Part shown: positions 1 through 353 of the stretch, one piece after another
How the letters are laid out: every line of letters begins with the position of its first letter
Position numbering within the stretch: position 1 is the first letter of the stretch
Assembly (NCBI RefSeq): GCF_003334815.1
Contig: NZ_QOWO01000134.1
Origin: Escherichia coli
Lineage (GTDB): Bacteria; Pseudomonadota; Gammaproteobacteria; Enterobacterales; Enterobacteriaceae
DNA: 353 nucleotides
Strand: one strand, 5' to 3'
Position numbers and translations under genes: made by a program
Notes under the pieces: generated by a model
The model's input: the letters and a program-made list of their open reading frames with translations, nothing else
Databases searched by the model: none
Told to the model about the DNA's origin: nothing

Positions 1-353
1 CCAGCCACAGAAATCACAGCCCTGTTCGGCATACCAGTGCTCCAGCGTGCAGCTGAAACGGCGGCTTAATTCTGCAATAACGTCGCTTTCCGGCTGACAC
101 CACGGCGTGTCGAAATCAACCTGAATGAAGTTGTCTCCCTGACTACTGATATTCAGGTCATACCCACAAGGCCACTTCACGCCATACCGTTCTGTATACC
201 AGTGATATGCAGAAGGAACACCGTTCAGAACACCGCCGTTAAAGCCATTCACTTCAATATCCAGGCGGGTCGGCAAAACCGTCAGCAGGTCAAACGGCAT
301 GGTTTTTTCCGGCAGTACGTTGTCACACAGACGGTTCCACCACACCGATACAT
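1..353 (-). CDS. Partial CDS for a hypothetical Trp/Cys-rich protein of unknown family; open across the whole window, truncated at the 3' end and probably at the 5' end
   Basis: Seen in sequence: the minus-strand frame with codons at 349-351, 346-348 ... 1-3 has 117 consecutive sense codons and no stop. Codon choice is typical of E. coli-like coding sequence (CTG Leu, CCG Pro, GGC Gly, GAA Glu, AAC Asn, GAC Asp dominate). The other two minus-strand frames are closed by stops (TGA at 282-284 and TGA at 323-325 on the minus strand). The in-register antisense frame on the plus strand is full of rare codons (ATA x4, CGG x5, AGG x2, AGA, CGA) and has no in-frame ATG. An in-frame ATG lies at 300-298; the 17 codons upstream of it (VSVWWNRLCDNVLPEKT) share the Trp/Cys-rich character and preferred-codon usage of the rest, so I favour a start beyond position 353, but a start at 300 cannot be excluded. 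Product family not recognised. Confidence 0.8.
298..310 (-). promoter_or_regulatory. Possible translation initiation site (alternative start): weak GGA Shine-Dalgarno-like element, A-rich spacer, then ATG at 300-298
   Basis: Seen in sequence: the minus strand reads CCGGAAAAAACC-ATG, with GGA seven nucleotides upstream of the ATG and an A6 spacer. The GGA is only a 3-nt match to the Shine-Dalgarno consensus, and the frame stays open and coding-like upstream, so this is more likely an internal Met codon than the true start. Confidence 0.25.

Follow-up and report, generated by a model that had tools for sequence, protein, structure and literature searches.

The 8-bp direct repeat in a plasmid DUF1281/Api92-like gene is very probably a coincidence of codon choice

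Gene and plasmid context of the window

The window, i.e., the whole 353-nt stretch of DNA that was analysed, lay inside a single gene. Frame 2 of the minus strand was the sole frame open across all 353 bases, and its translation contained EVNGFNGGVLNGVPSAY and RLDIEVNGFNGGVLNGVPSAYHWY. The window was 100% identical to part of the CDS of WP_001739825.1 on the IncI-gamma/K1 plasmid NZ_CP023362.1, where this CDS of 300 aa was annotated as "DUF1281 domain-containing protein". The following features were defined in the window.

1..351, minus strand: codons 139-255, an internal part of a DUF1281/Api92-like plasmid gene annotated as 300 aa and belonging to the YfaB/YubB/YccB/YfdA family (open frame, identity match, Pfam and PDB)
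235..267, minus strand: family motif R167-L-D-x-E-[IV]-N-G-F-N-G177, directly upstream of the repeat (29-sequence alignment)
211..246, minus strand: ordered loop G174-S185 (GFNGGVLNGVPS) holding both repeat copies (DSSP on the AlphaFold2 model, match to 2IJR)
228..235, minus strand: first (upstream) copy of the 8-mer CGGTGTTC as the gene is read, running from the third base of G177 through G178 (GGT) and V179 (GTT) to the first base of L180
216..223, minus strand: second (downstream) copy of the 8-mer CGGTGTTC as the gene is read, running from the third base of N181 through G182 (GGT) and V183 (GTT) to the first base of P184

The 117-aa fragment encoded by the window matched the Pfam families PF06924 (DUF1281; E=1.7e-13) and PF18406 (DUF1281_C, ferredoxin-like domain in Api92-like protein; E=2.1e-12), and the homolog clusters of the protein carried a precomputed PF06924 assignment. 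The three characters of a DUF1281/Api92-like protein, i.e., PF06924, PF18406 and a fold equivalent to 2IJR, were all found.

Close copies of the gene were present in nearly 4,800 plasmid records, mostly conjugative and mostly from Escherichia, Salmonella, Shigella, and Klebsiella, and the gene was present in 3,032 of 5,426 complete E. coli genomes. One IncI1 record gives its name as yfaB. A single E. coli genome carried the gene in as many as 6-7 places; 48 of the places were chromosomal rather than on a plasmid, which suggests integrated plasmid segments or islands. Several database "fusion" proteins, with DUF1281 joined to PsiB, FinO, TraV, or methylase domains, probably result from frameshifts or assembly errors.

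The neighbours of the gene (L001) included umuDC-like genes, a DinI-like gene, parM (ParM), a DNA methylase gene, and an antirestriction gene. This neighbourhood is typical of a plasmid leading region, and the gene would be one carried there by conjugative plasmids of the IncI and IncF groups. In the survey of leading regions by Samuel et al. (2024, Nature; PMC11541004, supplementary file 3), the same family, labelled "Uncharacterized; DUF1281" (YubB/YccB/YfdA/YfaB), was number 27 of the 100 largest leading-region families; its 1,949 members lay at a median of 22 genes from oriT (FDR p=0). That source gave no sequence or structure match of family 27 to anti-CRISPR or anti-restriction proteins, and its content has nothing on the 8-mer repeat (PMC11541004).

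Searches of NCBIfam and PADLOC with the protein gave no match, and its PHROGs matches were to families of unknown function only. Similarity to a known anti-defence protein was found neither in supplementary file 3 of PMC11541004 nor in PADLOC or NCBIfam, and no functional study on DUF1281 or Api92 was found in the literature. The host gene belongs to a known, catalogued family of unknown function.

On the opposite strand, a stop-free frame of about 95 codons (window 70-353, plus strand frame 0) ran off the window end, and a 155-aa GTG-started version of it was present in L132. This antisense frame, which had neither family nor RNA evidence, probably arises just from the codons used in the sense gene.

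Predicted fold, loop and conserved motif

An AlphaFold2 model built on 29 homologs had a mean pLDDT of 89.5 and a pTM of 0.86, and the pLDDT over residues 171-190 was 93-94. The model matched 2IJR with TM-scores of 0.84/0.90 and an rmsd of 1.7 A over 270 columns (Foldseek E=1.3e-21), and 2IJR was the sole match found by Foldseek against the PDB. DSSP on the model showed that G174-S185 formed neither helix nor strand and lay between a short helix (168-173) and a second helix (186-193). The sequence-only reading had proposed a "Gly-rich turn or loop" at the repeat, and this was supported, with residues 174-185 being a confidently predicted coil in a model that matched an experimental entry, 2IJR.

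The 2IJR entry is a structural-genomics structure of Api92 from Yersinia pseudotuberculosis, which has the same two-domain architecture (PF06924 + PF18406). Compared with the full protein, it gave a phmmer match of E=9.4e-44 over residues 13-266, with about 31% identity. The R-L-x-I-E-x-N-G motif before the loop was common to Api92 and the window protein; however, the Api92 loop was one residue shorter (NG-NSQLLTGV vs NGFNGGVLNGV, with the gap inside NGFNGG) and was without the first Gly-Val. Api92 had no cysteines at the positions of C250-x-x-C253, whereas this pair was conserved in the plasmid clade. No function is known for either protein.

In the 29-sequence alignment, R167, N173, N176, and G177 were invariant, and L168, D169, E171, G174, and F175 were at least 93% conserved; RLDxE[IV]NGFNG was the third most conserved 12-residue block. 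It is conceivable, though rather doubtful, that this motif together with the fixed-length loop forms an active or ligand-binding site in a protein acting early in conjugative establishment, e.g., an anti-defence factor. If so, the strict length conservation among orthologs described below would reflect that function.

A C-x-x-C pair, C250-D-F-C253, was found at window 7-18 inside the second most conserved block, EHWYAEQGCDFC; C253 was invariant and C250 was 93% conserved. C147 (window 325-327), H95, and H243 were also invariant. To judge from the alignment, C250 and C253 with C147, H95, and H243 may form a metal-binding or redox site in proteins of the plasmid clade.

The 8-bp repeat and its codons

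On the plus strand, GAACACCG occurred at 216-223 and 228-235, with 12 nt from start to start. In the coding orientation, the region read AAC GGC GGT GTT CTG AAC GGT GTT CCT, encoding N176-G-G-V-L-N-G-V-P184. The peptide NGGVLNGVP that had been assigned to the repeat was therefore correct, and it is read from minus-strand frame 2. On the coding (minus) strand, the repeat was C-GGT-GTT-C, present twice, and at the protein level it was just a Gly-Val dipeptide used twice with identical codons, four residues apart. The two 12-nt units were identical at 8 of 12 nt and at 2 of 4 residues. In the codon usage of the gene, GGT was the commonest Gly codon and GTT the second-commonest Val codon (6 uses vs 7 of GTG).

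The frequency of such repeats was estimated in three ways. When the window was shuffled by mononucleotide, 11% of the shuffles contained an 8-mer direct repeat within 30 nt; for synonymous recodings that kept the same peptide and the gene's own codon usage, the figure was 14.6%. For real sequence, 1.03 Mb of related enterobacterial plasmid DNA was divided into 2,841 non-overlapping windows of 353 nt, with the 59 copies of the locus itself removed, and 22% of these windows held an equivalent repeat (0.31 events per window, or 0.028 when the spacing had to be exactly 12). Tandem Repeats Finder reported nothing at a minimum score of 30, its lowest threshold. In the whole protein, dipeptides recurred within 2-6 residues 4 times, compared with 4.9 +/- 2.3 in shuffles. 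Thus the sequence and positions of the repeat as first described were exact, but the repeat was at chance frequency and was not statistically unusual.

The window also contained a longer exact direct repeat. The 9-mer ATACCAGTG occurred in frame at window 31-39 and 196-204, 165 nt apart, and the extended copies were identical at 16 of 19 nt. Both copies encoded His-Trp-Tyr, as H243-W-Y and H188-W-Y. H243-W-Y belonged to a strand within the EHWYAEQGC block, which was strongly conserved, and H188-W-Y was in a helix and poorly conserved (H 17%, W 41%). An internal duplication as the origin of this pair was rejected, since the copies lay in different secondary-structure elements and H188-W-Y was not conserved; the 9-mer repeat looks coincidental.

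Conservation of the repeat among alleles and homologs

In five aligned alleles of the E. coli/Shigella/Salmonella clade (L004-L008), the segment read GGT-GGT-GTT and the repeat was reduced to a 7-mer, or to a 6-mer in L008. In the next allele (L009), the repeat was broken, and it was absent from the Klebsiella-type alleles (L010/L011), which read GGC GGT CTG CTG GAC GGC ATC CCG. Among the 120 metagenomic copies listed, the exact 8-mer pair was present in 59, and nearly all of the others were the GGT allele. The difference lies in one base: the first base of the upstream copy is C in the GGC allele and T in the GGT allele, so that a 7-mer is left in the latter. Nearly all variation in the 22-nt core of these 120 listed copies was synonymous, which is the pattern expected when constraint acts only on the protein.

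In the alignment of 29 homologs, residue 178 was G, R, or K, and residue 179 was L in 24 of the 29. Residue 182 was G in 24 of 29 (83%), and residue 183 was I or V about equally (52% I/V; I in 15 of 29), while P184 was kept in 93%. The Gly-Val/Gly-Val pairing was almost confined to the clade of at least 87% identity; the distant homologs had G-L...G-I without a DNA repeat. On these alignments, the DNA repeat is an allele-specific character that is not conserved beyond the close clade.

These data bear on the reading that the repeat is a signal within the coding sequence acting at the nucleic-acid level, e.g., an RNA element, an antisense feature, or a direct repeat bound by a protein. Two points are in its favour, the presence of the repeat and the long stop-free antisense frame on the plus strand. 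However, a search of both strands of the window against Rfam gave nothing at E<=1, the first base of the repeat varied synonymously in about half of the alleles, and the repeat was absent from more distant alleles that kept the protein motif. A signal of this kind is extremely unlikely.

Length of the segment across the family

The length of the segment was constant in the 58 homolog clusters down to 42% identity, save for one singleton with a 35-residue deletion, so that no homolog was found without a four-codon unit. The singleton (cluster P0021) was the allele at L133:301-1152 in the IncI1 plasmid of E. coli UMNK88 (CP002731.1), which carried a 105-nt in-frame deletion. This deletion removed residues 165-199, comprising the conserved motif, the loop, and the following helix; the microhomology at its junction was at most about 1 nt, and it was unrelated to the 8-mer. 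The CP002731.1 allele is probably defective.

In the deep family, 39 representatives at 24-43% identity were compared. Twenty-one had the same segment length and 18 differed; 10 were one residue shorter, 4 had +3/+4 residues, and 4 had +13 to +16 residues. Most of the insertions directly followed the P184 position, where the next helix has its N-terminal cap. The insertions of 13-16 residues, found in P0147, P0159, P0222, and P0250 (27-33% identity) at about the equivalent of window 211-216, are exemplified by DGTPSPEGWLAFQPGY. The inserted residues were not copies of their neighbours, and these proteins were without the DNA repeat. The alignments mark the loop/helix boundary as the variable site of the family. 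Over long evolutionary times, the loop edge is thus an unremarkable surface site that tolerates indels, and such differences in length are frequent in surface loops. Since loop length varies in the deep family, the site is not absolutely intolerant of indels. Length variation in the deep family was never by the repeat unit and gives no support for a repeat-driven mechanism or for an ancestral four-codon duplication.

The idea of such a duplication is that the repeat is the relic of an in-frame 12-nt tandem duplication, which lengthened the loop by four residues in the ancestor of the clade. The G-V-x-x-G-V pattern with identical codons in this allele agrees with it. However, no homolog four residues shorter was found in either the 58 clusters or the 39 deep representatives, where the changes were -1, +3/+4, or +13 to +16 with insertions after P184, and the two units shared only 8/12 nt and 2/4 residues. 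As most homologs have G-L and G-I at these positions, the similarity of the units is attributable to recent convergence by V/L and V/I substitution and is not ancestral. The "small in-frame duplication" suggested from the window was thus unsupported, in view of the same length in the homolog clusters, the partial identity of the units, and the lack of an array by Tandem Repeats Finder, and a relic of this origin is very improbable indeed.

Search for 12-nt length variants

The sequence-only reading had also considered the repeat a possible "indel hotspot", to be recognised by 12-nt length variation among orthologs. In this reading, slippage between the 8-bp copies would recurrently delete or duplicate four codons and so give loop-length variants. 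Short direct repeats can mediate deletions, and the two copies here are exact, 12 nt apart, and in frame; the tolerance of loop length change at deep divergence and small indels (+1 and +3 nt) beside the upstream copy in two records are further points in favour.

A synthetic 12-nt deletion allele (68 nt) and a synthetic duplication allele (92 nt) were searched for in the plasmid and E. coli genome collections. The deletion allele was found in none of 4,816 plasmid and 3,911 E. coli genome records. The best match to it was 85.0%, which was the wild type aligned with a 12-nt gap over an 80-nt span. The duplication allele was found in none of 4,852 plasmid and 3,919 E. coli records, with a best match of 87-88%, which was the gapped ordinary allele. 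As there is overlap between the two collections and phylogenetic redundancy within them, the number of independent lineages is far below that of the records (about 8,700). In metagenome contigs, the exact deletion junction gave 0 matches. The variable-gap pattern, which allowed any spacing of 5 to 35 nt, found at least 120 loci, which are a sample and also served as the positive control for the deletion-junction search; all 120 metagenomic copies listed had the wild-type 22-nt spacing.

Apart from the 105-nt deletion, two rare small changes were found, in near-identical copies of the gene. Both lay within or next to the upstream copy of the repeat, at the equivalent of window 229-240. NZ_CP024279.1 (L002) had an additional T in GGTGTTTCTG; this was a change in a T-run and caused a frameshift. 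NZ_CP053253.1 (L003/L132) had 3 additional nt in the CGGCGGTGGTG run (CGG-CGG-TGG-TG), which gave one more Gly codon (NGGGVL). The NZ_CP053253.1 copy also had an upstream frameshift near LPEK and other substitutions, and, being frameshifted upstream, it may be a pseudogene or come from an error-prone assembly. Both NZ_CP024279.1 and NZ_CP053253.1 are linear records, and the changes in them may represent pseudogenes or assembly errors. The +1, +3, and 105-nt changes were the only exceptions found, and none of them involved the 8-mer pair.

Against a slippage-prone site, therefore, no 12-nt variant was found in the ~4,800 plasmid records, the ~3,900 E. coli genome records, or the 120 metagenomic copies listed. 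The +1 was a T-run change and the +3 a change in a run of GGY codons in a copy that was already frameshifted upstream, neither of them at the 8-mer pair, and the deep-family insertions were not copies of neighbouring residues. The expected 12-nt variation among orthologs was thus missing, with no deletion or duplication allele in any collection searched. With no ortholog length polymorphism and a repeat not conserved beyond the close clade, the proposal of an indel hotspot was largely contradicted, and recurrent slippage at this site is very unlikely.

Replication-slippage hotspots at short direct repeats, such as the classical ones in lacI, show recurrent gain or loss of the repeat unit. The window repeat is like them in having identical short copies close together, in coding sequence and in frame. 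Unlike them, it has only two copies of 8 bp at chance frequency, with no gain or loss of the unit in thousands of copies.

Interpretation of the repeat

It is very probable that the 8-bp repeat is a coincidence of codon choice and is neither functional nor mutationally active. Two Gly-Val dipeptides lie in the ordered glycine-rich loop just after RLDxE[IV]NGFNG; both use GGT-GTT in this allele, and chance flanking Cs extend the identity to CGGTGTTC twice. The resulting 8-mer pair would have no function and no detectable mutational consequence. The constant length of the segment in orthologs would be kept by purifying selection on a functionally important loop beside a conserved motif, and an 8-bp repeat with a 4-bp spacer would be too weak a slippage substrate to leave a trace. 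It is conceivable that slippage at the repeat is modestly raised and its products are purged by selection.

The repeat is literally present in the sequence but is not a real biological feature. Since it behaves as chance codon reuse in a catalogued family, it can be dropped from follow-up. The loop beside RLDxE[IV]NGFNG, which was length-invariant across thousands of plasmid copies, would be a reasonable target for mutagenesis in any study of the protein. This abundant leading-region protein is still uncharacterised, and the motif and the fixed-length loop are plausible candidates for a functional site.

Annotated start codon

The RefSeq start of the 300-aa CDS was the ATG at L001:5589. An in-frame ATG was present 24 nt upstream of it (L001:5565-5591), was preceded by GAGAGGAGAA, and would add MPNWCSNR to the protein. 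As the distant homologs had the N-terminus MPNWCANRL and most database clusters were of 308 aa, the annotated start is probably too far downstream by 24 nt.
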